From: Desulfuromonadales bacterium
GTDB lineage: Bacteria > Desulfobacterota > Desulfuromonadia > Desulfuromonadales > SZUA-540
NCBI GenBank assembly: GCA_033549025.1
Contig: JAWSUS010000015.1
Location: forward strand, 1-64,000
Length of the DNA: 64,000 nt
Direction: 5' to 3'
In this document: positions 50,274 to 63,545 of the stretch, one piece after another
Layout: each line of letters begins with the position of its first letter
How positions within the stretch are numbered: the first letter of the stretch is position 1
Notes under the pieces: model-generated
Database searches by the model: none
What the model was told of the DNA's origin: nothing
What the model saw: the letters and a program-made list of their open reading frames with translations, nothing else
Made by a program: the position numbers and the translations under genes

Positions 50274-50705
50274 GTGCCCGTGCATCGAACCCGTGCCCTG
50301 CTAGCCGTCTGCGCCTGCGCTGGCCTGATCGGCGCCTTTGTCGTCAGCCTCCTTTTGGGGGTTTTACCCAGGGGGGAGCTGCTCCCCACGGCAGAACTCT
50401 TCCTGCATGATCCCCTCTCCCCCGAATGGCTCTACCCCCGGCTGCTGCGAGGCGGTGCCTGGGCCCTGCTCTTCTTCGTGACCGTCGCCTCGCCACGCCA
50501 GCGCCGCCACTGGATCCGCAAGGCGCTCTGGGTCAGCCTGATACCCGCTGCCTGGCAGCTGCTGTATGTCTTTCCGAAGCTCACCCCTTACGGCCTGTTC
50601 GGGCTCCAGCTCGGCATCGCCGCACCCTTTTTCGTGCTGCTGATCCACTTGATCTGGGGCTTCTTTACCGGCCTGTTCGCCCGGCTGCTGTGGGGGCGGC
50701 CATGA
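50274..50705 (+). CDS. Hypothetical membrane protein (about 4 TM)
   Basis: aggag RBS, GTG start, hydrophobic segments, 4-nt overlap with the next gene. Confidence 0.7.
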   Translation: MPVHRTRALLAVCACAGLIGAFVVSLLLGVLPRGELLPTAELFLHDPLSPEWLYPRLLRGGAWALLFFVTVASPRQRRHWIRKALWVSLIPAAWQLLYVFPKLTPYGLFGLQLGIAAPFFVLLIHLIWGFFTGLFARLLWGRP

Positions 50706-51232
50706 GATTCTCCCGACTTTCCCTGAAATCCGGGGTCTTCCTGATCTTTCTACTGACGAGCCTGCTAGTGGGGATGCAGAAGCGGCCAGACCCTCCGCCC
50801 ACCGCCACCGGCCTCAGCGGCACCGTCGAGTGGGTTTACGACGGCGACACCCTGAAGGTAGCCGGCATCGGCAAGGTGCGCCTGCTCGGTATTGATACGC
50901 CGGAGCATGAGGATTCCTCCCGCGACCGCGGCTTCACCCGCTTGGGCGTCCCCGCCAAAAACCTGCGACCCATGGCCAAGGCCGCCCTGCAGCACAACAT
51001 CGCCCTCGTCAAGAACCGCACTGTGCGCCTGATTACCGAAGAGGAAGAACGCGACCGCTACGGGCGTCTGCTGGCCTACGTCTACCTGGAGGACGGTACC
51101 GAGCTCAACCGCCTCCTGCTCGAAAAAGGGCTGGCCGTAGTCTATAGACGCTTCAGTTTCGCCCACAAAAAGGATTTCCTGCAGGCCGAAAAGGCCGCCC
51201 GCCAGGCCGGACTCGGCCTCTGGGCACCCTAG
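50702..51232 (+). CDS. Thermonuclease (SNase) family protein
   Basis: DGDT, VRLLGIDTPE, DRYGRLLAYV, A+..GLGLW; N-terminal hydrophobic anchor. Confidence 0.9.
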   Translation: MRFSRLSLKSGVFLIFLLTSLLVGMQKRPDPPPTATGLSGTVEWVYDGDTLKVAGIGKVRLLGIDTPEHEDSSRDRGFTRLGVPAKNLRPMAKAALQHNIALVKNRTVRLITEEEERDRYGRLLAYVYLEDGTELNRLLLEKGLAVVYRRFSFAHKKDFLQAEKAARQAGLGLWAP

Positions 51233-51299
51233 CCCTGGCCTTGCATTCCCCCGGTGTATCTGCTAAGAAAAGCCCCTAACCACACACCGGGAGTGACTC

Positions 51300-52418
51300 A
51301 TGGAAACCCTGCAGACCCTCTTTGACCAGCATGTCTTCGGCATCGGTCTCGGCCGCTACGCCACGGCCTTCGGCATCCTGCTGGCGGCCCTGATTCTCCG
51401 CCGCATCGCCGACCACCTGTTCAACCGCTTTCTCGTGCCGCTGGCCGCAAAATCCGCCAACCCCTACGACGACCTGACTTTGCAGAGCCTGCGCAAGCCC
51501 GGCACCTTTCTCGTCACCCTCGTCGGCCTCTTTCTGGCGGTCCAGGTTCTGCAGCTGCCGGTGGAGCCGATGGATGTCCGCCGCTTCGCCCACGCCCTGC
51601 TCAAAGTGCTCATCACCTTCGACATCGCCTGGGCCCTGTTCAATCTGGTCAGCGTGCTCGAAGCCTATCTATCCAAGTTGGCCCACCACACCGACTCGAC
51701 CCTGGACGACAACCTGCTCCCCTTCGTCCGCAAGAGTCTGCGGGTCTTTATCGTCTTCATGGCCATCCTCATGGCCGTGCAAAACCTCGGCTACTCCATC
51801 TCGGGGCTGCTCGCCTCCCTCGGCATCGGCGGCGTCGCCGTGGCCCTGGCCGCCAAGGACACGCTCTCCAACATCTTCGGCTCCTTCATGATTATCCTCG
51901 ACCGCCCCTTTGGCATCGGCGACTGGATCAAGGCGGGGGACATGGAGGGGACCGTCGAAGAGGTCGGCTTCCGCTCTACCAAAATCCGCACCTTCGCCCA
52001 GACGCTGATCGCCGTCCCCAACAACATCATCGCCAACATGCCCCTCGACAACTTCAGCCGCATGCCCAAGCGCCGCATCAAGATGACCGTCGGCGTCACC
52101 TACGAGACCACCCCCGCCCAGCTGCGCGAGGCGGTGGAGCGCATCCGCGCGTTGCTGCGCCGCCATCCGGCCATCGACCAGGAGTTCTTCCTCGTCAACT
52201 TCACCGACTTCGGCGCTTCCTCCCTCGACATCATGGTCTACTGCTTCACCAACACGACGGTCTGGGCCGACTATCTCGACGCCCGCCAGGACGTCTGTCT
52301 GCAGGTCATGGATATCCTCGAAGATATGGGCCTGGAGATCGCCTTCCCCAGCCGCAGCGTCTATCTACGCGGCAAGGAAGAGGACGGCCTGCCCGCCCCG
52401 GCCGACGCCGAGGCCTGA
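51300..52418 (+). CDS. MscS-family mechanosensitive channel
   Basis: GIGGVAVALAAKDTLSN, DRPF.IGDWI, GFRST, FGASSL, IAFPS. Confidence 0.92.
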   Translation: METLQTLFDQHVFGIGLGRYATAFGILLAALILRRIADHLFNRFLVPLAAKSANPYDDLTLQSLRKPGTFLVTLVGLFLAVQVLQLPVEPMDVRRFAHALLKVLITFDIAWALFNLVSVLEAYLSKLAHHTDSTLDDNLLPFVRKSLRVFIVFMAILMAVQNLGYSISGLLASLGIGGVAVALAAKDTLSNIFGSFMIILDRPFGIGDWIKAGDMEGTVEEVGFRSTKIRTFAQTLIAVPNNIIANMPLDNFSRMPKRRIKMTVGVTYETTPAQLREAVERIRALLRRHPAIDQEFFLVNFTDFGASSLDIMVYCFTNTTVWADYLDARQDVCLQVMDILEDMGLEIAFPSRSVYLRGKEEDGLPAPADAEA

Positions 52419-52422
52419 GACG

Positions 52423-52461
52423 AAAAAGAGCGGAAAGCCAGCCTGGCTTTCCGCTCTTTTT
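52423..52461. terminator. Bidirectional terminator; first copy of the agagcgga(a)agcc repeat
   Basis: aaaaagagcggaaagcca/tggctttccgctcttttt stem. Confidence 0.75.
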
Positions 52462-52855
52462 CAAGATACCGCTACCGCCTCTCCCTGTCTCGCCCCCTCA
52501 CCACCCCTCGCATAACCCTGGCATTGAAATGCCCTTACCACCTGTTACTATCTACATAATGCGGGACCGCTACATGCCTATTTCCTCTATTTATCCCGAA
52601 GTTCCCGACATCTTTTAAAGTTTCAAACGTGCGCACAGGAAAACCTCGTCGCCTTCGTTGGGGTTCACGCATCCCCCTTCTGAGTCATCTCCGAGAGAGA
52701 GACACCCCGGGCGAAACAAAGAAACGCCCGAGAATATTTTTCCCCCCAGAGGATGAATTTCGGTCTCTTTCGTCTTTCCAGCTCAATAACCCAGTCTTTT
52801 GGCTTGTTCTCTTCATGACATGCGTCTTAAATCGACATTAAACCTGGAGGATTTC

Positions 52856-53722
52856 ATGACGTCATACACTTCCGCTATTTCGGAGAGGCTGGAAGATTTT
52901 CTCGGGCCCCAGGTGGTGGGCCAACTGCTCACTGAATGGACCATCAAACTCGTCGTGGCCCTGGTAATACTTATCGTTTTTTATACCCTGTGGCGAATAG
53001 TACAGGGACTGATGCGTGCTACCTTTCGGCGAAAGATGGATGAAACGAGCTTTTCCTTTCTTGAAACAATCGTTAAATTCGCCCTCCTGACAATCGGTTT
53101 CATTACAGCCCTGGACTCTGCAGGCATCAAAACTTCGGCCTTGTTGACATCTCTGGGCATTGTCGGATTGACCATCGGCTTTGCCGCCCGCGATGCCTTG
53201 TCCAACCTTATCTCGGGAATCCTGATTTTCGTTGACCGCCCCTTCGTTCTTGGGGATCTGGTTGAAATCGAGGGGGTATATGGACGGGTCGAACGGATCA
53301 CCCTGCGTTCGACCCGGGTGGTGACTTCCGACGGCCGCATGCTGGCCGTGCCGAATACCCAGGTCATCAACAAGACCGTTGCTTCCTATACCAACTTTCC
53401 ACACCTGCGCATTGATGTGAAGGTCACGGTCGGGGTCCTGGAGGATTTAGACCACATCCGCGGGCTATTACTGGCACTGGTACAGGACGATCCGGCCTTC
53501 ATGACCAGTCCCGCTCCGCGCGTGGTCGTCACAGAACTGAACGATTACAATGTGGCGGTGGAACTGCAGGCCTGGCTCGATGATGAAAAAAGGCATGTCG
53601 AAAAACGTTTCGAGCTCCGGGAAAAGGCTTTCAAGACTCTTAATCAGGCAGGGGTGGAATTGCCCTTTGAAACCCTCAAGCTCCAGCCCCTGGATGTCAC
53701 TCTGGTGGGTTCCAAATCATGA
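52856..53722 (+). CDS. MscS-family mechanosensitive channel (short type)
   Basis: GLTIGFAARDALSN, DRPF..GD, LRSTR, VPN; ggagg RBS before ATG 52856. Confidence 0.9.
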   Translation: MTSYTSAISERLEDFLGPQVVGQLLTEWTIKLVVALVILIVFYTLWRIVQGLMRATFRRKMDETSFSFLETIVKFALLTIGFITALDSAGIKTSALLTSLGIVGLTIGFAARDALSNLISGILIFVDRPFVLGDLVEIEGVYGRVERITLRSTRVVTSDGRMLAVPNTQVINKTVASYTNFPHLRIDVKVTVGVLEDLDHIRGLLLALVQDDPAFMTSPAPRVVVTELNDYNVAVELQAWLDDEKRHVEKRFELREKAFKTLNQAGVELPFETLKLQPLDVTLVGSKS

Positions 53723-53752
53723 ACCTTTGGGAAACGTCCTGCTTGGTCGACA

Positions 53753-53789
53753 AAGCAGAGCGGAAGCCAGCACGGCCTCCGCTCTGCTT
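53753..53789. repeat. Hairpin; second copy of the agagcggaagcc repeat
   Basis: aagcagagcgga/tccgctctgctt stem between convergent genes. Confidence 0.55.
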
Positions 53790-53833
53790 CGCTGCACTCA
53801 AATGGTCGCTTTCACCTTCCCCCTCCAGCCGTT

Positions 53834-55186
53834 TCACTCCTCCTCGCCTGACGGCCAGATGCGCTTAAAGGCCGTCTGCGGGAAAAAACAGACAGGGCAC
53901 TGCTCCGGGGCCTCGTCGCCATAATGGACATGCCCGCACATCCGGCAACGCCAGGCTTCAGAAGAGCCTTCGGCAGAGGACGCCGGATTCAGATCCATCC
54001 CTCGCATCAAGGGGAGCTGATCGAGGGCAGGCATGGCAGGGACGTACTTCTCCAGGGCATGGCCGGCGAGGACTATTCGCTGAACTTCGCTGGTCCCCTC
54101 GTAAATGGTGAATAGCCGGACATCCCGCAACAGTTTCTCGAGGGGGAACAGCCGGGTATACCCGTAGCCGCCAAAGATCTGCAGGGCCTCGTTCACCACC
54201 TCCATGGCCGTTTCCGTCGCCACCATCTTGGCTATTGAGGCCGAAATGGTAGGGTCGTGCCCACGATCGGCCTCCCAGGCCGCTTTCCAGACAAGCAGTC
54301 GGGCCGTCTCCACCTTCTGGAACATCTCGGCGATTTTGAACTGGATGGCCTGAAAGTTGGCCAGCGGCGCTCCGAAAGCCTGGCGTTTTTTGGCGTAGTC
54401 GATGGCGTATTCCATGGCCGAACGGGCAGCTCCTACGGCAAAGGCACCGATAACGGGTCGCGTCCGGGCGAAGGTCTTCATGGCCAGGGCAAACCCCTCG
54501 CCCGGCGGGGCGATGACATTGCGCCGGGGTACGCGGACATTGCGGAAGTGAAGTCCCGCCGTATTGGAGCAGCGTTGTCCCAGTTTGGGGATGTGTTCTC
54601 CGACCTCAACCCCCGCCCAGGATTTTTCCACCAGAAAAGCACCGATTCCTTTGTGACCCGCCTGGGGGTCGGCGGTAGCGAACACGGTCATGTAATCCGC
54701 GATGCCGCCATTGGTGATCCAGAACTTGGTGCCGTTTAAAAGGAAGTCGTCGCCATCGGGTCTCGCCTGACAGCGCATACCCGCGACATTGGAGCCCATG
54801 GTTGGCTCTGAGGTGGCAAAGCAGATGTACTTACCCTCTTCCAGGATCCGCCTGAAATATTCCTTTTTCAGCGCCTCGTTCCGGCAAAGAAGAAGGGGCT
54901 CGAACCCGAGGGAGTTGTCGAAGACGGACGTGGCCACGCCGGGGCAGGCCGCGGCGATCTCCTCGGAGATCAGAACGCTTTCCAGGATGCCGAGCCCCAG
55001 GCCGCCGTACTCAACCGGAATGTCGTGATTTAGAAAACCTTCCTCCCGTGCCCTTTCAAGCAGAAAGAGGGGGATCTCGTCACGCTCATCGTAATGCCAG
55101 GAAGCCGGCAGAACCTCCGTGCGGGCAAACTTCCTCGCCCTGATCCGGAGCTCCTCCTGGGCGGCAGACAGCGAAAAATTCATCAT
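53834..55186 (-). CDS. Acyl-CoA dehydrogenase with C-terminal rubredoxin-like domain
   Basis: SEP..GS, NGTKFWITNG, RQAFG, QIFGGYGY, IYEGTSEVQR; tail WRCRMCG...PEQCPVC. Confidence 0.92.
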   Translation of the reverse strand: MMNFSLSAAQEELRIRARKFARTEVLPASWHYDERDEIPLFLLERAREEGFLNHDIPVEYGGLGLGILESVLISEEIAAACPGVATSVFDNSLGFEPLLLCRNEALKKEYFRRILEEGKYICFATSEPTMGSNVAGMRCQARPDGDDFLLNGTKFWITNGGIADYMTVFATADPQAGHKGIGAFLVEKSWAGVEVGEHIPKLGQRCSNTAGLHFRNVRVPRRNVIAPPGEGFALAMKTFARTRPVIGAFAVGAARSAMEYAIDYAKKRQAFGAPLANFQAIQFKIAEMFQKVETARLLVWKAAWEADRGHDPTISASIAKMVATETAMEVVNEALQIFGGYGYTRLFPLEKLLRDVRLFTIYEGTSEVQRIVLAGHALEKYVPAMPALDQLPLMRGMDLNPASSAEGSSEAWRCRMCGHVHYGDEAPEQCPVCFFPQTAFKRIWPSGEEE

Positions 55187-55406
55187 GAAAACTCCTTCGA
55201 AGGTGAGTCAGAAGGGCCAGGTCTCAACCGCCTACAAACCCAAAGAGTGACTTCTGCAGAGCGTGCGAGACGCTCCCAACACCATGACAAACCACATCAC
55301 GGGTAGATTCACCTTGAACAAGAAGCCACTACCGCTAAACCGCTTACCCGCAAATAGAGCGGAAGCCGGCGAGCCACCACTCAAGCTGCAGTCAACACAG
55401 CACTTT

Positions 55407-55850
55407 CTATTTCACCTCCACCTCGATCTGGCGGGGCTGGTCGCTTGATTTCTTGGGAAGGACGACCTTGAGGACGCCCTTGTCGCAGCGGGCGCTGATG
55501 CGCTCCTGGTCGATGGTGGCGGGCAGGGAGAAGCTGCGGCGGAAGCTGCCGTAGCTGCGTTCAATGCGGTGGTAGTTCTGCTGTTTCTCCTTGCGTTCCA
55601 GTTCGCGGCGGCCGCTGATGACCAGGGTGCCTTCTTCAAGGGTGACGTCGATGTCCTTCTGGTCGATCTCGGGGACTTCCATCTTGACCACCACCTCCGC
55701 ATCGTCCTCGTAGATGTCGACGGCGGGGTGCCAGCTGCCGCTCTCCACCGGTTCGCCCTGACTGCGCTGGCGGCTCAGCTCGAACAGGCGGTTCATCTGC
55801 TCCTGCATCAGCTGCAGTTCCTGCAGCGGATTCCATTTGCCCGTGGCCAT
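55407..55850 (-). CDS. Hsp20/alpha-crystallin small heat-shock protein
   Basis: PAVDIYE, ERSYGSFRRSF.LP, A...GVL.V.LPK. Confidence 0.95.
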   Translation of the reverse strand: MATGKWNPLQELQLMQEQMNRLFELSRQRSQGEPVESGSWHPAVDIYEDDAEVVVKMEVPEIDQKDIDVTLEEGTLVISGRRELERKEKQQNYHRIERSYGSFRRSFSLPATIDQERISARCDKGVLKVVLPKKSSDQPRQIEVEVK

Positions 55851-55960
55851 GATCCTCTCCTTCCGGGGGGTTGCCCGGCCTCAGAACACAGCGGCCGGCT
55901 TTTTGCGCTAGATTAACAAAAAACCGGCCGCGTGCAATGGAGAATTCCTTGCCAGGGTAC

Positions 55961-58900
55961 CTATTGGAAGACCTCTCGGGAGGAGGATGTGGCGGGGTCG
56001 GGCGCGAAGATCTCCTGCAGGCTGGCTTCGTCGTCGGCGCCGTTCTGCACGTAGCGGCGCATGGCCACAACCCGACGGCGGATCTCTTCTTCGGCCCGTT
56101 CGCGGATCTGGCTGCCCAGCTTTTTGATCTCCTCGCGCTGGCGGGCGGTGTCGCGCTTGCCTTCGGCCAGATCGGCCTGCAGGCGCGCCTCAAAGATGCT
56201 TTTTTGCAGGTTGCGCACCTCCACCCCAAAATCGAGTACTTCCGGCACCAGCCCGGAGAAGCTGCGCACGCCACAGATATCCTTGCCTTCCATGCGGTAG
56301 GCCTCCAGCACCTCCGGCTCGAAGTCGAGATAGTTCTGCTGGGGCATGTACATGCGCGGCAGATACTGCAGCACCTTTTCGGCTTTTTTGCGGTGGCCGC
56401 CGATGATGACGGAGGCGCCGACTTCGCCGCGCTGGGCCCCCTTGATCCAGGGCGCACCGGTGATGCCAAAATCGTTGAGCACCGGCAGGTTCAAAAACAC
56501 CGACAGGGTGTTGATCGCCAGCGCGAAACCGGCGGAGGGACCGCCGACGCTGTAGGAGGCCGACAGCAGCTGGTGGTGCAGGGAGTAGCCCTCCAGAAAG
56601 CGCCCGAGCAGGCGAGGCAGGTTAAAGTCAGGGCAGAGAGCCTGCAGATAGTTCTCGACCAGGGTCACCGCCTCGCAGGCGCTCTGGCGGGTCATCTGTA
56701 CGGCCAGGTCCATCTCGGCTGCGCCCGGCGCCGAAGTGGAGACGGCCCCGGTCACCACGATCTTCTCGGGAAAGACCCGGTAGACCAGGGACGAGGCGAT
56801 GGGCAGCAGAATACCGCTGGTGTCGTTGGCCCCGACGCCGACGACGAAACCGACCTGGGGTTCTTTCGACAGTTCCGTCTCCAGAAATTCATCGAGCTGC
56901 TGTTTGCCCTTGCGCAGGGGGCTGCCCGCCAGCTGGGTGCGGGCGCTGAGCAGATGCCAGCGGGTGATGGGGAAAATTCCCTGCCGGTAGATCTTGCCCA
57001 GGCGCGAGGCGGCTTCATCGAGACAGCCCAGCAGAGATTCCTCGCCGTGCCGGGCGCGCAGGGCCAGGCTCGGTTCACCGGCCGCTCCCTCCAGCAGGCC
57101 GACCAGGGTCTTGTAGTTGAAGCGGACGAAACGCATGCGTTCTTCCTCGTCCCCCTTGACCGCCTCCATGAGCTTGCCGAGCACCTCGATCTCCGTCGAG
57201 CGCAGGCTGCGCACCTTTTCGACAAAGGCGGTAAAGTCTGCGGGCGTTTCGCAGAGGGAGCGGGCCACCCGCACGATCTCCTCGAAGCTGAGGCCTTCGT
57301 CCAGGCTGAGATCACGCAACTCCTTGTGCATGATGCGCAGGGCATCCTCGTCCCGCATGTGCCCGGTGACGTTGAGCACTTTCAGGCGTTTGGAGCGGAT
57401 CAGGGCCGGATCGAGAATGTCGAGACGGTTGGTGGTCAGCACGGTAAAGACCCGGTTCAGGGGGGATTCCCCGTCGATGATGGAGAGGAACTTGTTGGTG
57501 ACCTTGTCGTAGGGGCTCCCCCCCTGGGCGCTACGGCGCGGCGCCACCGAGTCCCCCTCGTCGAAGAAGACCATGGCGGGCGAGAGCATCTTGGCGATGT
57601 CGTAGACCCGTTCGAGATTCTCCACCATGCCTTCAAACGGATTGACCGGATCGGCCAGATCGTTGAGGTTGACCACCAGGTCCTGCACCTCGCGATTATC
57701 CCCCAGCCAGGCCCGCACCATGTAGGTCTTGCCCGAACCCGGCGGCCCGGCCAGCACCACCCCCTTCTCTTCGTTGACGTTGTAGAAGAGAGCGTTGTTG
57801 GCCATCTCGGAAAATTCGTTCTTGATGCCGCCGATATAATCGCTCCAGCGGACGCCGCGGTCGATATGCCCCACCAGCTTCTTGTAGAGGGAACCATAGA
57901 CGTTGCGGGCCACTTCTTTGAGGGCGTCACGCACCAGAAACTGATCGTCGAGATAGCGGTCGTGGAAATCACCCTTGAGGGAGATGATGGAGTCGATGAG
58001 GCGGCGTACGTAGGCCGGTGTGATGCGCAGGCTGCGCTCGCGGAAGATGGGATAGAGATGGTCGACCACCCGCTCCAGCTGCTCCTCGGGGAGGACCCTC
58101 TCTTCCTGGCCCGGGTGACCGGCGTTGAAATTTTTGCGCTTGAGCTCCTGGCGGACCACCTCGCGCAGGTGGTGGCGGTCCTGCCAGAATTCGCCGATAT
58201 CGATGACCAGACCGCGTTCGACGAAACGCCGGTAGATGGCGGGATCGAACTGTTCCGGCTGGTCGGTGGTGGCGATCAGCAGGCAGTCGCGACGGCCGTA
58301 GGCGATCTCGTCCAGCAGAATGTTGGCCGTATCGACCAGACTGGCCTGCTGCCCCTTGACGGTGCTCATCTGGTCAGGGCGACCGAAAGCCGAATGGGCC
58401 TCTTCCAGATGGCGGATGCAGGTGCGCCGCTCGTCTCCCATGGCCTTGCGCAGATAGTTGCCCGGTTCCCCCGCCCAGGCCGTCTGGTAGTCGTTGGGGG
58501 TGATCATGGCATAGTCGACCCAGACCCCCTGCTCTTCCAGGGAGGAGAGAGCCTGACCGATGCGCTCGCGAAAGATGTAGCGGATCAGGGGAACGCGGGA
58601 CCAGAAGCGCAGGCGCTCCACCTTGCGGCGCCGTTCGATGCGCACCGCCAGTTCGGGGTCGACATCCTCCAGGTGACGCCAGAAAGGTTGATCGGAGAGC
58701 ACCTCCTCTCGTTTGACCTCCAAATCGATGACGGGGCGCACCTCGTTGGCGAAGACGGCCTCCTCGATGGCCTGCTTGACCGTGGCGCTTTTGCCGCTGC
58801 CGCTGCTGCCCACCACCAGCACGAGGGGCGCTCGCGGCACCAGGGGATCTTCGGTGTACTCCTTGAGAATGTGGGCGTGGTAGAGTTTGCGGAAGGTCTC

Positions 58901-59296
58901 CAGCAAGGGCGGCGGCACGAAGATGTCGGTGGTTTTGTGGGCCAGCAGAAAGGTCAGGTACTGGTAGTCGTGCCAGTCGAGCTCGCGTTCAAGGATTTTC
59001 TCCCAGGCAGCCGAGGCGCTCTGCGAGCCGGACACCTCGAACCGTCGCCGCCAGTCGCTGAGCAGCTCCGGGTTGCGCAGATTCTGGAAATTGCGCTCCG
59101 ACGGCTTCAGCAGCCGCCGCAGCCAGGCCCGCAGCCGGCCGAAGAGGGTCGGCGTCGGGTCATACTGCCGCAGTCGGCGCAGCACGAAGAGGCGGGTCTC
59201 GTAGTTCCACTGCTCAACCAGCGCCTCAATCTGCTTGATGCGCTTCTCGGAGAGCCGGACGTATACTGGAGACCTTGTTTTTCGCGGCCTGCTCAT
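55961..59296 (-). CDS. Tandem AAA-AAA ATPase fused to a C-terminal Lon (S16)-type Ser-Lys protease domain
   Basis: AAA1: GSSGSGKS, AWAGE, HLEEAH, DPAIYRRF. AAA2: GPPGSGKT, FFDEGD, TTNRLDILDPALIR. Protease: GGPSAG (S921), ITG, IIGGHRKK (K971), MPQQN. Confidence 0.85.
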   Translation of the reverse strand: MSRPRKTRSPVYVRLSEKRIKQIEALVEQWNYETRLFVLRRLRQYDPTPTLFGRLRAWLRRLLKPSERNFQNLRNPELLSDWRRRFEVSGSQSASAAWEKILERELDWHDYQYLTFLLAHKTTDIFVPPPLLETFRKLYHAHILKEYTEDPLVPRAPLVLVVGSSGSGKSATVKQAIEEAVFANEVRPVIDLEVKREEVLSDQPFWRHLEDVDPELAVRIERRRKVERLRFWSRVPLIRYIFRERIGQALSSLEEQGVWVDYAMITPNDYQTAWAGEPGNYLRKAMGDERRTCIRHLEEAHSAFGRPDQMSTVKGQQASLVDTANILLDEIAYGRRDCLLIATTDQPEQFDPAIYRRFVERGLVIDIGEFWQDRHHLREVVRQELKRKNFNAGHPGQEERVLPEEQLERVVDHLYPIFRERSLRITPAYVRRLIDSIISLKGDFHDRYLDDQFLVRDALKEVARNVYGSLYKKLVGHIDRGVRWSDYIGGIKNEFSEMANNALFYNVNEEKGVVLAGPPGSGKTYMVRAWLGDNREVQDLVVNLNDLADPVNPFEGMVENLERVYDIAKMLSPAMVFFDEGDSVAPRRSAQGGSPYDKVTNKFLSIIDGESPLNRVFTVLTTNRLDILDPALIRSKRLKVLNVTGHMRDEDALRIMHKELRDLSLDEGLSFEEIVRVARSLCETPADFTAFVEKVRSLRSTEIEVLGKLMEAVKGDEEERMRFVRFNYKTLVGLLEGAAGEPSLALRARHGEESLLGCLDEAASRLGKIYRQGIFPITRWHLLSARTQLAGSPLRKGKQQLDEFLETELSKEPQVGFVVGVGANDTSGILLPIASSLVYRVFPEKIVVTGAVSTSAPGAAEMDLAVQMTRQSACEAVTLVENYLQALCPDFNLPRLLGRFLEGYSLHHQLLSASYSVGGPSAGFALAINTLSVFLNLPVLNDFGITGAPWIKGAQRGEVGASVIIGGHRKKAEKVLQYLPRMYMPQQNYLDFEPEVLEAYRMEGKDICGVRSFSGLVPEVLDFGVEVRNLQKSIFEARLQADLAEGKRDTARQREEIKKLGSQIRERAEEEIRRRVVAMRRYVQNGADDEASLQEIFAPDPATSSSREVFQ

Positions 59297-60236
59297 GGGG
59301 AGAAAGCTCTTCCTTTCTGGCCGGCTCGGGCGGCGCCGGCAAGACGACCGGCGTCGCGCCGGCGGTGTTGTTCAGGACGAAGGTATTCTGGCCCTGCTGG
59401 TTCTTTTCGTAGGCGGTGGCCCATTTCTGCTGGTTGAGAAACTCGAACAGAAACCGTTCCTCCCCTTCCTGCAGGCCGACGGCGGCGCGGAATTCGCGGA
59501 TTGAATCGCTGTAGGCGGCGTAAAGCTTGCGGGTTCGGCTGGCCTCGAGGTCGGCGGCGTAGTTCTCGGCCTCGGCAATGAGCTCCCGCCGCTTCTTCTC
59601 TTCGCTGGCCTCGGCTAGCTTGTCGCCAAAGCGGGTATCCCGCAGGACGAAGGAGACCACTTCGATGCCGTACTTCTGCTCCAGGTTGGGCCCCCCTTCG
59701 TTGATGGGGCGCTGCTTGAGGGCCTGGTAGATCTGTTCCTTGATCATCTCGCGGTCGGAGATGAGTTCATCGACGCTGTGTCCCTGCATGACGTCCTTGA
59801 CGATACCGTCGAAATCGTTCTGCAGCAGGGTCTGGGGCGACTTGTTTTCGATGCCCCAGGTCTCCAGGTCGCCGATGCGATAGGTCATCATGGCGCTGGT
59901 CCACAGGGCCACGTTCCCCCGCGACATGATGCGTTCTTCCTGGGATTTGCCGCCGAGATGGAGTTCCTGGTTCATCAGGGGCACCTCCAGCTCGATACGG
60001 GTGAAAAAGGGGAGCCGCATATGCCAGCCGATGCTGTGCACCACCCGCCGTTCGCCCGAAAGATCTTCCAGAACCACGGCGTAATTCTTGCGAACCTTGT
60101 AGATGGTCTTGGTCGCATAGACCAGGGCCACCCCGTAGTAGACCATGACGCCCACCAGAAGAGTCAACGCGCCCCGCTTGAGCAGGGCTTTCATGCGGGC
60201 TCGGTGCAAAAGTCGAAAACGCTGGTCGGCTTCCAT
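59226..60236 (-). CDS. SPFH/band-7 (HflC/prohibitin-like) membrane protein
   Basis: One N-terminal TM, GWH.RLPFF, SVDELISDR, YGIEVVSFVLRD, Ala/Glu coiled coil; aggagagg RBS; overlaps the AAA gene by 71 nt. Confidence 0.8.
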   Translation of the reverse strand: MEADQRFRLLHRARMKALLKRGALTLLVGVMVYYGVALVYATKTIYKVRKNYAVVLEDLSGERRVVHSIGWHMRLPFFTRIELEVPLMNQELHLGGKSQEERIMSRGNVALWTSAMMTYRIGDLETWGIENKSPQTLLQNDFDGIVKDVMQGHSVDELISDREMIKEQIYQALKQRPINEGGPNLEQKYGIEVVSFVLRDTRFGDKLAEASEEKKRRELIAEAENYAADLEASRTRKLYAAYSDSIREFRAAVGLQEGEERFLFEFLNQQKWATAYEKNQQGQNTFVLNNTAGATPVVLPAPPEPARKEELSPHEQAAKNKVSSIRPALREAHQAD

Positions 60237-60537
60237 AGTCACCTCTCCTGTAATATGCCATAAACTATAACATCATTTTAAATTTTTTCTCGACAGCTTT
60301 TTTGGTCTTCAATCGGCACAGACAGATCGTCCAAAACGGCTACTCCATACGCGCTATCCCTGTTTTAAAACATTGTTTATATAAAATTATTGAGATCTCG
60401 ACAGCCACCACGCCACCCTCGCCTGAAAATATCGATTTCACCGAGGAACGGTTGACCTCTCGGGACCGAGCGGCCATAATTTGCCAGTAAGCGCTGCCGA
60501 TCCTGCTCGGCTTTTATCCCGACAAAGGAGACCCCTC

Positions 60538-61671
60538 ATGAGTTCTCAGGTTCCCGTCTATTTCGCCGACATGCGTGCCGGCCATCGCGAAAACCTCTTC
60601 AACAAGCTGACCCGCCTGCTGGACGCCGCCGGCATCGAGCAGGTGATCCGGCGCGGCGATTTGACCGCCGTCAAGATTCACTTCGGCGAAAAAGGCGGCC
60701 ATGCCTACATCCGCCCCACCTTCCTGCGCCGCGTGGTCGACCGGGTCAAGGCCCTGGGCGGCAAACCTTTTCTCACCGACTCCTGCACCCTCTACCCCGG
60801 CGAACGCAAAGAAGCCGTCTCCGCCCTGACTTGCGGCATTGAAAACGGCTTCGCCTATGCCGTTGTTGGCGCCCCCCTCATCATGTGCGACGGGCTGCGC
60901 GGCCAGTCGGCCACCCGCGTCCCCATGGAGGGCGGCCTGCTCACCTCCGTCTCCATCGCCCAGGAAATCCTCGAAGCCGACGTGCTCATCGCCGTCTCTC
61001 ACTTCAAGTGTCACGAGCTCACCGGTTTCGGCGGCGCCCTCAAAAACCTCGCCATGGGCTGCTCGAGCCGTGAAGGCAAACTGGAGCAGCACTCCAACGT
61101 CGCCCCGAAGGTGGCGGAGAAGTTCTGCACCGCCTGCGCCGCCTGCCTGAAAGCCTGCGCCCACGGGGCCATCGCCTTCGTCGAGGGCAAAGCCTTCATC
61201 ACCGCCGCCAAATGCACCGGCTGCGGGCGCTGCATCACCGTGTGCGAGGAAAAGGCCATCCAGATCCAGTGGAACGAGGAAGCCCCGCTGGTCATGAAAA
61301 AGATGGCCGAGTACGCCAAAGGAGCCGTGCGGGGCAAGGAAGGCCAAACCCTGTTCGTCAATTTCATCACCCAGGTCTCCCCCGCCTGCGACTGCTACGG
61401 CCACTCGGACGCCCCTATCGTGCCGGATATCGGCATCCTGGCTTCCGCCGACCCCGTCGCTCTCGACCAGGCCTGCGCCGACCTGGTCAACCAGGCCCAG
61501 GGTCTGCCGAACACCGCTCTGCAGCAAGGGCATGAGTCGGGCGGCGACAAGTTCAGAGGGGTTCACCCCGCTATCGACTGGGAGATTACGCTGGAACACG
61601 CCGAGGCCATCGGCCTGGGGAGTCGGCAATACGAGCTGATCCGGCTGGAGCCGCAGGGGAAGAGCTGGTAG
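60538..61671 (+). CDS. DUF362 domain protein with 2x[4Fe-4S] insert
   Basis: KIHFGE, TDSCTLY, SHFKCH..GFGGALKN.AMGC, CxxCxxCxxxC twice, SP.CDC, DPVALDQAC. Confidence 0.9.
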   Translation: MSSQVPVYFADMRAGHRENLFNKLTRLLDAAGIEQVIRRGDLTAVKIHFGEKGGHAYIRPTFLRRVVDRVKALGGKPFLTDSCTLYPGERKEAVSALTCGIENGFAYAVVGAPLIMCDGLRGQSATRVPMEGGLLTSVSIAQEILEADVLIAVSHFKCHELTGFGGALKNLAMGCSSREGKLEQHSNVAPKVAEKFCTACAACLKACAHGAIAFVEGKAFITAAKCTGCGRCITVCEEKAIQIQWNEEAPLVMKKMAEYAKGAVRGKEGQTLFVNFITQVSPACDCYGHSDAPIVPDIGILASADPVALDQACADLVNQAQGLPNTALQQGHESGGDKFRGVHPAIDWEITLEHAEAIGLGSRQYELIRLEPQGKSW

Positions 61672-61705
61672 GCGGACAACGCACCGAAAAGGAAGGAGAC
61701 AGAAT

Positions 61706-62095
61706 ATGCCCATGGAGATTACCTTTCCCGGCGGCGCGGCAGTCAATGCCAGCGTCCGGGGCTTCACCATCCACACCGACCAGCCCGAGGAGGATGGCGG
61801 CGGCAACAGCGCCCCGGCCCCCTTCGAGTTCTTTCTGTCCTCCATCGGCACCTGCGCCGGCTACTACGCCCTGCGCTTCTGCCAGCAGCGCCAGCTATCC
61901 GTGGAAGGGTTGAAGCTGCACCTGGATTGGGAGAGGGACCCGGACAGCCATCGCCTCACCCGGGTGAGGCTGACCTTTGAACTGCCCGCGGACTTCCCGG
62001 AAAAGTACGGCAAGGCCATTCTGCGTGCGGCAGGACAGTGCTCGGTTAAACGCGCCATCCTCGACCCGCCCGAGTTTGATATGGGTATTGCCTGA
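61706..62095 (+). CDS. OsmC family protein
   Basis: TDQP...GG...P.PFE.FL.SIGTC, second Cys in QCSVK. Confidence 0.88.
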   Translation: MPMEITFPGGAAVNASVRGFTIHTDQPEEDGGGNSAPAPFEFFLSSIGTCAGYYALRFCQQRQLSVEGLKLHLDWERDPDSHRLTRVRLTFELPADFPEKYGKAILRAAGQCSVKRAILDPPEFDMGIA

Positions 62096-62106
62096 AAAAC
62101 GGTTAC

Positions 62107-62355
62107 TTACAGAGGGGGATAATCGGCGGCCATAGCCGGATCCTGTTCTTCCAGGGGGAGTTCGCGACCGAGGGCGGTCAGCAAAGCTTCGGCGTCCAGG
62201 CGGCGCGAAGGCGGGTAGGCGATCTCGACCAGGGCCTGTCGGTTGTCGAGGGTACGGATGAAGGCGAGACCATCGTAGCTCTCCAGCACGAAACGCAGGT
62301 AGGCGATATGCTGGCGGGGGGTGAGATAAATACGTTTGACAAAAGGGGTGTCCAT
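62107..62355 (-). CDS. DUF4911 domain protein
   Basis: IAYLRFVLESYDGLA..RTLD; aggag RBS before ATG 62355. Confidence 0.75.
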   Translation of the reverse strand: MDTPFVKRIYLTPRQHIAYLRFVLESYDGLAFIRTLDNRQALVEIAYPPSRRLDAEALLTALGRELPLEEQDPAMAADYPPL

Positions 62356-62438
62356 AAAGCGCTCCTGGCCGCTGACCGGCCTCAACAACACCAATGAGAT
62401 AACAGGACGACACGCGTTCGAAAGAAAGGACAGCCGCC

Positions 62439-63545
62439 ATGATCGTCGCCGTACCCAAGGAAATCAAAACCCGCGAATACCGCGTCGGCCTGACCCCGGC
62501 CGGGGTGCGCACCCTCGTCGAGGACGGTCACCAGGTTCTGGTGGAATGCGGGGCCGGCGATGGCAGCGGCCTCGACGACGACCAGTATGCGCGGGCGGGC
62601 GCCGAAATTGTTCCCACGGCGGCGGAAATCTACCGCAGGGCGGAGCTGATCGTCAAGGTGAAGGAGCCGCTGCCGGTGGAATATCCCCTGTTGCGGCCGG
62701 GACAACTCCTCTTCACCTATCTGCACCTGGCCCCGGCCCCGGAACTGACGGCGGCCCTGCTCGACCGCCAGGTCACCGGCATCGCCTACGAGACGGTGCA
62801 ACAGACGGACGGCAGCCTGCCGCTACTGCACCCCATGAGCGAGATTGCCGGCCGCATGGCCGTGCAGGTGGGAGCCCATTTTCTCGAGAAGGAACAGGGG
62901 GGCAAAGGGGTGCTGCTGGCGGGAGCCCCCGGTGTGCGCCAAGGCAAGGTGATGATCCTGGGCGCCGGCACGGTGGGGAGCAACGCGGCCCGCCTCGCCG
63001 TGGGCATGGGCGCCGAAGTCACGGTACTCGATATCGACCCGGCCCGGCTGGCCGCCCTTGACCAGCACTACGGCAACCGCCTGCAGACCCTGATATCCAA
63101 CTCGCAGACCATAGAGGAAGAAATCCGCCGCGCCGATCTGCTCGTCGGCGCCGTCCTCGTCGCCGGCGCCCGGGCGCCCCAACTGGTAAGCCGCGAGATG
63201 GTCGGCCGCATGGAGGCGGGCAGCGTCATCGTCGACGTGGCCGTGGACCAGGGGGGCTGCGTGGCCACGACCCGCCCCACCACCCATGACGAGCCGACCT
63301 ATATGGTCGACGGCGTCATCCACTACGGCGTCGCCAACATGCCGGGAGCGGTAAGCCGCACCAGCACCTTCGCCCTCACCAACCGCACCCTCCCTTACGT
63401 GCGCGCCTTGGCGGCAAAGGGGCTGACCGAAGCCGTGCGCAGCGACGCGGCGTTGGCCGGCGGCCTCAACACCTACGCCGGCCACCTCTGCAACGAAGCG
63501 GTGGCCAGGGCCCAGGGCAGAGCTTATACCCCGTTTGCGGGCTGA
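62439..63545 (+). CDS. ald: Alanine dehydrogenase
   Basis: PKEIK..EYRV, VKVKEP, FTYLHLA, MSEIAGR, GAGTVG, VDQGG, VANMPG. Confidence 0.95.
   Translation: MIVAVPKEIKTREYRVGLTPAGVRTLVEDGHQVLVECGAGDGSGLDDDQYARAGAEIVPTAAEIYRRAELIVKVKEPLPVEYPLLRPGQLLFTYLHLAPAPELTAALLDRQVTGIAYETVQQTDGSLPLLHPMSEIAGRMAVQVGAHFLEKEQGGKGVLLAGAPGVRQGKVMILGAGTVGSNAARLAVGMGAEVTVLDIDPARLAALDQHYGNRLQTLISNSQTIEEEIRRADLLVGAVLVAGARAPQLVSREMVGRMEAGSVIVDVAVDQGGCVATTRPTTHDEPTYMVDGVIHYGVANMPGAVSRTSTFALTNRTLPYVRALAAKGLTEAVRSDAALAGGLNTYAGHLCNEAVARAQGRAYTPFAG

Follow-up and report, generated by a model that had tools for sequence, protein, structure and literature searches.

A 64,000-nucleotide stretch of DNA from a Desulfuromonadales bacterium (GenBank assembly GCA_033549025.1, contig JAWSUS010000015.1, positions 1 to 64,000; hereafter the window) harbors a cassette of two overlapping genes, which encode a predicted membrane protein of the SPFH family and a putative ATP-dependent protease of 1111 residues. 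In the latter, a tandem of classic AAA modules of the Cdc48/VAT type is fused to a Lon-type peptidase with a Ser-Lys dyad, an architecture that the original prediction for this locus, made from the letters of the DNA alone, had proposed and that is now supported by profile searches, matches in the Protein Data Bank (PDB), fold comparison and residue conservation. The cassette apparently constitutes an undescribed build of an AAA+ protease with an SPFH partner: no description of a tandem-AAA Lon fusion or of its pairing with an SPFH protein was found in the full-text literature, subscription journals lying outside the coverage, in agreement with the novelty claimed at the outset. Public records annotate the protease as 'AAA family ATPase' or similar, and passages of the preprint PMC11188069 link SPFH proteins to archaeal Vps4 loci, not to the AAA-AAA-Lon protein.

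As had been predicted, three co-oriented open reading frames are present on the minus strand, namely the SPFH/Band_7 gene (59226..60236), the AAA-AAA-Lon protease gene (55961-59296) and a gene for an Hsp20/alpha-crystallin protein (55407-55850), the last being a neighbor and not a component of the cassette. The SPFH reading frame is listed as 59226-60242, and its start is preferably placed at the ATG at 60236, which yields a protein of 336 amino acids, and not at the GTG at 60242, since this ATG follows a GGAGAGG Shine-Dalgarno motif at a distance of 7 nucleotides and homologues align from that methionine. The SPFH stop codon occupies 59226-59228 and the protease gene begins with the ATG at 59296, which confirms the 71-nucleotide overlap (59226-59296) noted previously. 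Upstream of the SPFH gene, an AT-rich region contains a sigma-70-like promoter match (TCGAGA-18-TATAGT with TG, 60264..60293, minus strand) that was found by consensus scan only.

The assignment of the ATPase part relies on several lines of evidence, among them conservation counts from a MAFFT alignment of 141 full-length family members spanning 31-100% identity (142 identifiers were picked and one sequence of fewer than 1000 residues was dropped). The protein, whose domains are all given on the minus strand, begins with a conserved N-terminal domain (residues 1-150, 58847..59296) that is mostly helical in the AlphaFold2 model (predicted local distance difference test, pLDDT, about 75-86; helices at 17-144), includes a hydrophobic/basic helix at about residues 50-63 that varies between the aligned sequences, and has no Pfam family match over residues 1-150. 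It is followed by AAA module D1 (residues about 151-470, 57887..58846), which was delimited by alignments, fold match and the second of the two PF00004 stretches that a Pfam scan found in the protein. D1 features a Walker A motif GSSGSGKS (K169), Walker B residues D329 and E330, the motif DPAIYRRF (R356, R357) and an insertion of about 70 residues (185-255), while its pore loop is aromatic, reading T-A-W-A-G-E (272-277) in the window protein and T-M-W-Y-G-E in distant members. The modeled fold of D1 corresponds to that of classic AAA ATPases, including Trip13, FtsHi, Rix7, p97, Rpt, FtsH, Vps4 and spastin (Z 14-15.7, root-mean-square deviation about 4 over 225-255 residues); ClpA is a lower match (Z 12.1).

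Module D2 (residues about 471-715, 57152..57886), the better conserved of the two, matches PF00004 with an E-value of 6.2e-27 at 513-639 and carries Walker A K523, Walker B D579 and E580, sensor-1 N623, R634 and R637 within a second region of homology that reads DPALIRSKR, and a 'TPADF' motif. Its pore loop, P-[LVIFY]-E-G (553-556), has no aromatic residue in 134 of the 141 members. VAT and p97 D2 are the best sequence matches of the protease in the PDB (1.9e-36 and below, two stretches each), and residues 320-725 are co-linear with positions 298-697 of the 733 in the NCBIfam CDC48 model TIGR01243, though the score of 86.9 bits stays far below the whole-protein cut-off of that family (802.65). 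Residues K169, K523, E580, N623, R634 and R637 of the ATPase modules and S921, T946 and K971 of the peptidase are each retained in 141/141 members, and D329, E330, R356 and R357 each in 138/141. The classic AAA clade is defined by a second region of homology that holds sensor-1 as well as Arg fingers; with Walker A lysines, Walker B acidic residues and Arg fingers of this region in both modules, the protein classifies as a type II member of that clade. The profile scan called for in the original prediction returned both AAA modules as well as Band_7 in the SPFH protein (E 3.6e-19), and the residues named there as K169, K523, S921 (GPSAG) and K971 (IIGGHRKK) proved to be correctly placed and invariant.

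D2 is connected to the peptidase by a helical linker (residues about 716-800, 56897..57151), delimited from the secondary structure of the models and without Pfam family match. The Lon-type (S16) peptidase domain itself (residues about 801-1022, 56231..56896) contains Ser921 in GGPSAG, Thr946 in ITGAP and Lys971 in IIGGHRKK, and was recognized by modeling, Foldseek and phmmer. When residues 780-1111 were folded alone from a 31-row alignment, AlphaFold2 produced a model with a pLDDT of 84.6 and a predicted template modeling score of 0.86, for which all listed Foldseek matches in the PDB through rank 49 are Lon proteolytic domains. The best of these is LonB of T. onnurineus (3k1j, 1.5e-10), others being B. 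subtilis LonBA (8dvh), M. jannaschii 1xhk and E. coli Lon (1rr9; TM-target 0.82, root-mean-square deviation 3.1 over 212 columns), and phmmer aligned Ser921 with the serine of the GDSA motif in LonB 1xhk (9.7e-5). The expectation that the C-terminal domain would match the Pfam family Lon_C was thus borne out with respect to the fold, as judged from model and Foldseek, but not with respect to the profile in the window protein, where the match stays below the cut-off; 11 of 12 diverse family members match Lon_C at E<=0.01 (best 3.2e-8). All Lon equivalog models were far below their cut-offs (among them TIGR00763, 27.1 bits vs 608; TIGR02902, 34.8 vs 723, E 7.3e-9; TIGR00764, 27.2 vs 517). With two modules that both match classic AAA, the protein is, judged by its sequence, not a LonA or LonB equivalog, and no Peptidase_M41 match occurs among the best 25 of the 30 Pfam families listed for it. 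The models hence indicate a Lon proteolytic fold with a conserved Ser-Lys dyad at the C-terminus, for which proteolytic activity would be expected. Beyond this domain, the chain ends in long helices (residues about 1023-1111, 55964..56230) that were placed by the models and the alignment (1025-1043 and 1050-1084 in the AlphaFold2 models) within a sequence-variable region, in which R1038, R1065, E1069, R1075 and F1097 are conserved. Hydropathy analysis revealed no membrane-spanning segment in the 1111 residues, the best 19-residue window (1.71) being located inside the Lon core.

The genetic link of the protease to a dedicated SPFH gene, likewise predicted, is obligate in the bacterial loci covered: the SPFH gene is always inherited together with the protease gene. 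In 30/30 loci cut from genomes of the order and of two other families of the phylum, an SPFH orthologue (56-99% identical) directly precedes the protease gene, overlapping or abutting it. The same arrangement was found in 71/71 loci holding upstream DNA among the best 80 of 340 genome-contig matches, the remaining 9 of these 80 starting at or inside the protease gene; the two sets of loci overlap in part. Moreover, in a sample of 151 genomes of the order, the protease, always as one copy per genome, occurs in 44 and the SPFH orthologue (E<=1e-40) in 44, with both present in 43. One of the two discordant genomes has the protease only, its match being at a contig start (G052), and the other, which is 73% complete, has the SPFH gene only (G020). 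ORF clustering of the flanks, which is noisy from shadow reading frames at high G+C, found no third gene widely common to the loci, nor any common mobile-element or defence genes. In about 10 Desulfobacterales-type loci, an alpha/beta-hydrolase (S33/S9-like) gene is located just upstream of the SPFH gene (e.g., L079, 3295-4038, plus strand), which may represent lineage-specific context.

The borders of the cassette became evident from a BLAST comparison of window positions 51000-63500 with the genomes G042 and G025. G042, a complete, single-contig genome of the same genus, aligns to 52808-55941 and 60440-63500 at 91-92% identity and lacks 55942-60439, with 46 unrelated nucleotides at the junction, while the cassette is present in G025. 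Since G042 is devoid of exactly this stretch yet keeps both flanks, the SPFH-protease pair and the promoter-like region, which falls inside the missing stretch, form a discrete 4.5-kb cassette (55942..60439) of two genes, not three. Visual inspection of the borders revealed neither a target-site duplication nor a repeat, and insertion and deletion are not distinguished by this comparison.

The SPFH protein matches Band_7 with 69.9 bits (cut-off 23.6) over residues 49-233. It is composed of an N-terminal tail (1-22), a single 19-residue hydrophobic segment (23-41), an SPFH domain (about 47-231) that begins directly thereafter, a charged helical region and C-terminal 'TFVLNN...VVLP' strands, in keeping with the one membrane span assumed initially. 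The HflK model TIGR01933 scores 19.8 bits against a cut-off of 159.4, which places the protein outside the HflK/HflC equivalogs, phmmer found no SPFH chain in the PDB at E<=1, and the matches listed in the homologue search comprise close bacterial orthologues only. An alignment of 22 orthologues has a mean column identity of 63%, and the tail is conserved and basic, with 7 K/R in 22 residues, an invariant R12 and a nearly invariant A13. Because of this strongly basic tail, the positive-inside rule predicts that the SPFH domain is periplasmic, so that the protein probably resembles HflK/C with a cytoplasmic N-tail. The same charge count finds K/R in the N-flank of E. coli HflK and HflC and no such tail in QmcA; HflK/C face the periplasm, whereas QmcA faces the cytoplasm. 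Two public records (P0292, Desulfuromonas soudanensis; P0390, Desulfuromonadales GWD2_61_12) label the SPFH orthologue 'serine protease', a designation probably carried over from the annotation of SPFH/NfeD operons.

The cassette is very highly conserved: identities between families of the order amount to 66-79%, and the mean column identity of the alignments is 63-73%. Full-length relatives of the protease occur in Desulfobacterales, Deferrisomatales and DPANN archaea; the bacterial carriers named in record titles include Desulfuromonas, Geoalkalibacter, Geothermobacter, Geopsychrobacter, Malonomonas, Desulfosarcina, Desulfobacter, Desulfatirhabdium, Desulfofustis and Deferrisomatales. An exhaustive phmmer search yielded full-length relatives at 31-39% identity (P0125-P0130, P0132), P0125 being named Candidatus Woesearchaeota, and P0131 and P0286 are named Nanoarchaeota. 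Archaeal relatives include the proteins MBR9683063.1, MCG2719043.1 and MBU4502635.1. As a tentative possibility, the family might have arisen outside Desulfobacterota and been transferred later, with which the wider sequence spread among these distant members, some of them archaeal, would be consistent. A metagenome scan with the alignment of distant members, which was dominated by the generic Walker A pattern, contributed just three loci of the family (L111-L113), each belonging to the bacterial type, and a scan of viral contigs gave generic AAA matches only.

In contrast to the SPFH gene, Hsp20, which the original prediction had considered the substrate-feeding part of the machine, does not belong to the system. 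The gene product is a clear Hsp20 (PF00011, 87.2 bits vs cut-off 20.8, E 8.7e-25), but homologues are found in the fetched flank of just 16/30 loci, 10 within 200 nucleotides and 6 at 1.2-3.3 kb, and in 11/80 genome-contig loci. All loci with Hsp20 nearby are from Desulfuromonadales, with proteases at least 71% identical, and it does not occur in the flanks of Desulfobacterales, Deferrisomatales and many Desulfuromonadales. Moreover, the cassette-less genome G042 keeps both hsp20 and the hairpin in its leader. The hsp20 gene is a lineage-specific neighbor with its own leader, at most stress co-regulated. The hairpin (55891..55935, minus strand), identified by RNA folding, has a 20-bp stem and belongs to hsp20, not to the cassette; the leader folds at -52.9 kcal/mol (z -3.6), with 0/200 shuffles as stable, and in the minimum-energy fold of 55851-55960 the Shine-Dalgarno sequence pairs with an upstream UUCUCC. 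The predicted structure may function as an RNA thermometer or in the manner of a terminator. Rfam contains no family for the hairpin, and over 55300-60600 yielded nothing relevant besides one sub-threshold M23 match (E 0.31). A candidate sigma-54 site upstream of hsp20 ('TGGCA...TTGCA') was rejected, its spacing not fitting the consensus. In two relatives an opposite-strand GGDEF-PilZ gene lies between the protease gene and hsp20 (L002, 9392-10609, minus strand; L005, 4763-5947, plus strand), and reading frames of similar size are present in L007 and L009.

With regard to expression, RNA libraries of three studies contain contigs covering parts of all three genes, and contigs from two of them span the SPFH/protease junction with 0-1 differences (X10 record 7, X12 record 15). 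These junction contigs are a weak hint of expression, as RNA libraries may hold DNA, and a contig across the junction is no proof of one transcript. None of the listed RNA-library contigs spans the gap between the protease gene and hsp20, uncovered parts being uninformative. One X12 RNA contig skips 244 bases within the D2 coding region (57460-57705; side of 29 letters, 90% likeness) and is most likely a chimera or derived from another organism.

In the working model, the product of the second gene would be a soluble ATP-dependent serine protease comprising a helical N-domain, two Cdc48/VAT-type AAA modules and a Lon peptidase. By analogy with such enzymes, it may assemble into a hexamer of stacked layers, in which the D1 modules form a ring with aromatic pore loops (W/F/Y-A-G-E), the D2 modules a ring whose pore loops are non-aromatic and the peptidase domains a Lon chamber, so that unfolded chains would pass through the rings into the chamber. 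The SPFH protein is envisaged with its tail in the cytoplasm and its SPFH ring in the periplasm. Because the SPFH domain is predicted to be periplasmic, a soluble protease could reach only SPFH tails or membrane-crossing clients, and for this reason we lean towards a protease that works on, or is drawn to, the cytoplasmic side of an SPFH-marked membrane patch. Contact might be established via the conserved N-tails or via client proteins, and the enzyme would unfold and degrade membrane-associated or damaged proteins, a function similar to that of FtsH-HflK/C though exerted by a protease that is not membrane-embedded. The domain identities, the conserved catalytic residues, the two-gene unit and its borders emerge directly from the data, and hexamer, ring order, activity, topology and SPFH contact are features that we infer. 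The original prediction is supported in part; the SPFH cage that it modeled on FtsH-HflKC is doubtful, and an enclosing cage unlikely, given a protease without membrane segment and an SPFH domain predicted to be periplasmic.

Several observations weigh against this model. A periplasmic SPFH domain leaves just the 22-residue tail to a cytosolic protease, which is a thin basis for a complex, and the C-flank of the SPFH hydrophobic segment also has 4 K/R, the positive-inside rule being the sole foundation of the topology. With an aromatic residue missing from the D2 pore loop and a D1 Walker B residue lost from three distant members, either ring may drive translocation. The whole-protein AlphaFold2 model, from which only the N-domain and D1 were taken, shows poor folding of D2 and of the Lon domain (pLDDT <50), the latter being well modeled solely as the separate fragment 780-1111, and Lon_C reaches only 18.6 bits in the window protein against a Pfam cut-off of 21.1. 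Furthermore, the patchy distribution, with the protease in 44/151 genomes of the order and in 10/401 of the phylum sample, shows that the system is dispensable.

The main rival to the working model holds that the SPFH protein is itself the substrate: the enzyme would grip the N-tail, extract SPFH subunits and degrade or recycle them, thereby controlling ring turnover in the manner of the stomatin-specific NfeD protease on stomatin or of Vps4 on ESCRT-III. Such a role is in line with the strict pairing to a dedicated subfamily, since no other SPFH paralogue reaches E 1e-40 in the 107 protease-less genomes, with the exposed, basic and conserved N-tail and with an aromatic D1 pore loop suited to gripping a terminus. 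There is also precedent in the PH1510 paper (PMC3795559), in which an SPFH gene shares its operon with the gene of a serine protease reported to cleave the SPFH protein. On the other hand, 1111 residues and two ATPase rings appear costly for a single substrate; the present data do not separate the substrate from the scaffold reading, and we deem the former rather unlikely. Less credence still is given to the three-part machine of the original prediction, in which the protease, at the membrane, is enclosed or scaffolded by an SPFH cage that faces the cytoplasm and receives its substrates from Hsp20. The co-orientation of the three genes here and the proximity of Hsp20 downstream (<200 nucleotides in 10/30 loci, within 3.3 kb in 6 more) speak for it, yet it is rendered improbable by the low count of 11/80 loci, by the retention of hsp20 and its leader hairpin in the cassette-less G042, by the GGDEF-PilZ gene that stands between hsp20 and the protease gene in two relatives or more and by the basic N-tail, which predicts a periplasm-facing SPFH domain.

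Two further explanations are very unlikely. A conflict or defence cassette, for example against phages, with the protease as triggered effector and the SPFH protein as membrane sensor, would account for the patchy distribution with presence and absence within one genus, and occurrence in both bacteria and DPANN archaea suggests transfer. However, PADLOC (2023 library) returned generic AAA matches only (TRIP13, 2.2e-12; IetA, 8.2e-10) and none for the SPFH protein, the conservation across the families of the order is very high, unlike that of fast-evolving defence genes, and single copies per genome as well as flanks free of common mobile-element or defence genes do not fit this picture. Equally remote is the notion that the Lon-like domain is a non-proteolytic oligomerization or binding module as in RadA/Sms or ComM, which would turn the protein into a pure remodeling ATPase. 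Non-catalytic Lon-like domains exist and the Lon_C match is weak, but the retention of Ser921, Lys971, Thr946, GGPSAG and ITGAP in 141/141 members down to 31% identity and a fold that matches active Lon domains argue for a peptidase.

Returning to the working model, a bolder version can be put forward as a tentative possibility, namely that the Cdc48-Lon chimera represents a further class of prokaryotic ATP-dependent protease, which docks on the cytoplasmic N-tail ring of a periplasm-facing SPFH assembly and extracts membrane proteins of the microdomain for degradation. If true, bacteria and DPANN archaea would possess their own equivalent of the Cdc48-driven extraction of membrane proteins, with a built-in peptidase. 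The known energy-dependent proteases of prokaryotes comprise Lon, FtsH, ClpXP/ClpAP/ClpCP, HslUV and the proteasome with PAN, Mpa or Cdc48; to our knowledge, all of them either carry the peptidase on the chain that forms a single ATPase ring or combine one or two rings with a peptidase that is a protein of its own. A Lon chamber joined in cis to a double ring of the classic AAA type would be a new solution, and the protein would offer a natural single-chain model for two rings handing a chain to a protease. In addition, the role of SPFH rings is still an open question for HflK/C-FtsH as well as for prohibitins and the m-AAA protease, and the strict pairing described here provides a second, independent test case. 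As a compact, highly conserved two-gene system occurring in cultivated Desulfuromonas, Geothermobacter, Malonomonas and Desulfosarcina, the cassette is open to experiment.

With respect to its surroundings in the window, the locus is flanked by a divergent DUF362 Fe-S gene and by an acyl-CoA dehydrogenase gene (53834-55186, minus strand), which is located just downstream of hsp20 and encodes a C-terminal rubredoxin-like (RUBY_RBDX) domain. Farther away, tandem genes for MscS-type mechanosensitive channels (51300-52418 and 52799-53722, plus strand) are found, as well as a gene for a 268-residue protein (50426-51232, plus strand) with a C-terminal staphylococcal-nuclease domain and an N-terminal half without assignment. 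The G+C content falls to 0.51-0.56 around 52000-53500, compared with about 0.63 elsewhere in the window.

A comparison with known systems illustrates which parts of the cassette are familiar and which are not. The AAA-AAA-Lon protein shares with Cdc48/p97/VAT a tandem of classic AAA modules, which align in the same order with D1 and D2 of the CDC48 model and each include Arg fingers in the second region of homology. However, its N-domain is helical in the model whereas that of Cdc48 is beta-rich, its D1 has the insertion of about 70 residues, its aromatic pore loop is in D1 and not in D2, and its peptidase is fused in cis, while Cdc48/VAT work with a separate 20S proteasome. With Lon (LonA, LonB, LonC; MEROPS S16), it shares the proteolytic fold, the Ser-Lys dyad motifs and the union of ATPase and peptidase on one chain, but differs by two ATPase modules instead of one, which are of the classic AAA and not of the Lon type, by the lack of the LonA N-domain and the LonB membrane insertion, and by the helical linker of about 85 residues that precedes the peptidase. 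ClpA/ClpC-ClpP is comparable by analogy only, in that a serine peptidase chamber would be supplied by two ATPase rings stacked on each other; the ATPases of the Clp systems are members of a different AAA+ clade, and their peptidase ClpP has a different fold and is not part of the same chain.

Concerning the membrane partner, a genetic tie likewise connects an AAA+ protease with SPFH membrane proteins in FtsH-HflK/HflC as well as in m-AAA/prohibitins, the topology predicted for the SPFH protein of the cassette would resemble that of HflK/C, and D2 matches the FtsH model TIGR01241 (1e-16). Unlike FtsH, the AAA-AAA-Lon protein has a Lon-type serine peptidase in place of the M41 zinc enzyme, two AAA rings and no membrane anchor, and because it lacks this anchor it cannot sit laterally inside an SPFH cage. 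Moreover, there is one SPFH gene here, not an HflK/HflC pair, and the hflKC genes of E. coli are not adjacent to ftsH. A likeness in gene arrangement is offered by the stomatin-NfeD/STOPP operons (Pyrococcus PH1510/PH1511; E. coli qmcA-ybbJ, which adjoin each other), in which an SPFH gene and a Ser-Lys protease gene also form a two-gene operon. In contrast to NfeD proteases, which are ClpP-fold, ATP-independent and membrane-bound, the partner encoded by the cassette is predicted to be soluble and ATP-dependent, and to combine two rings with a peptidase of the Lon fold.

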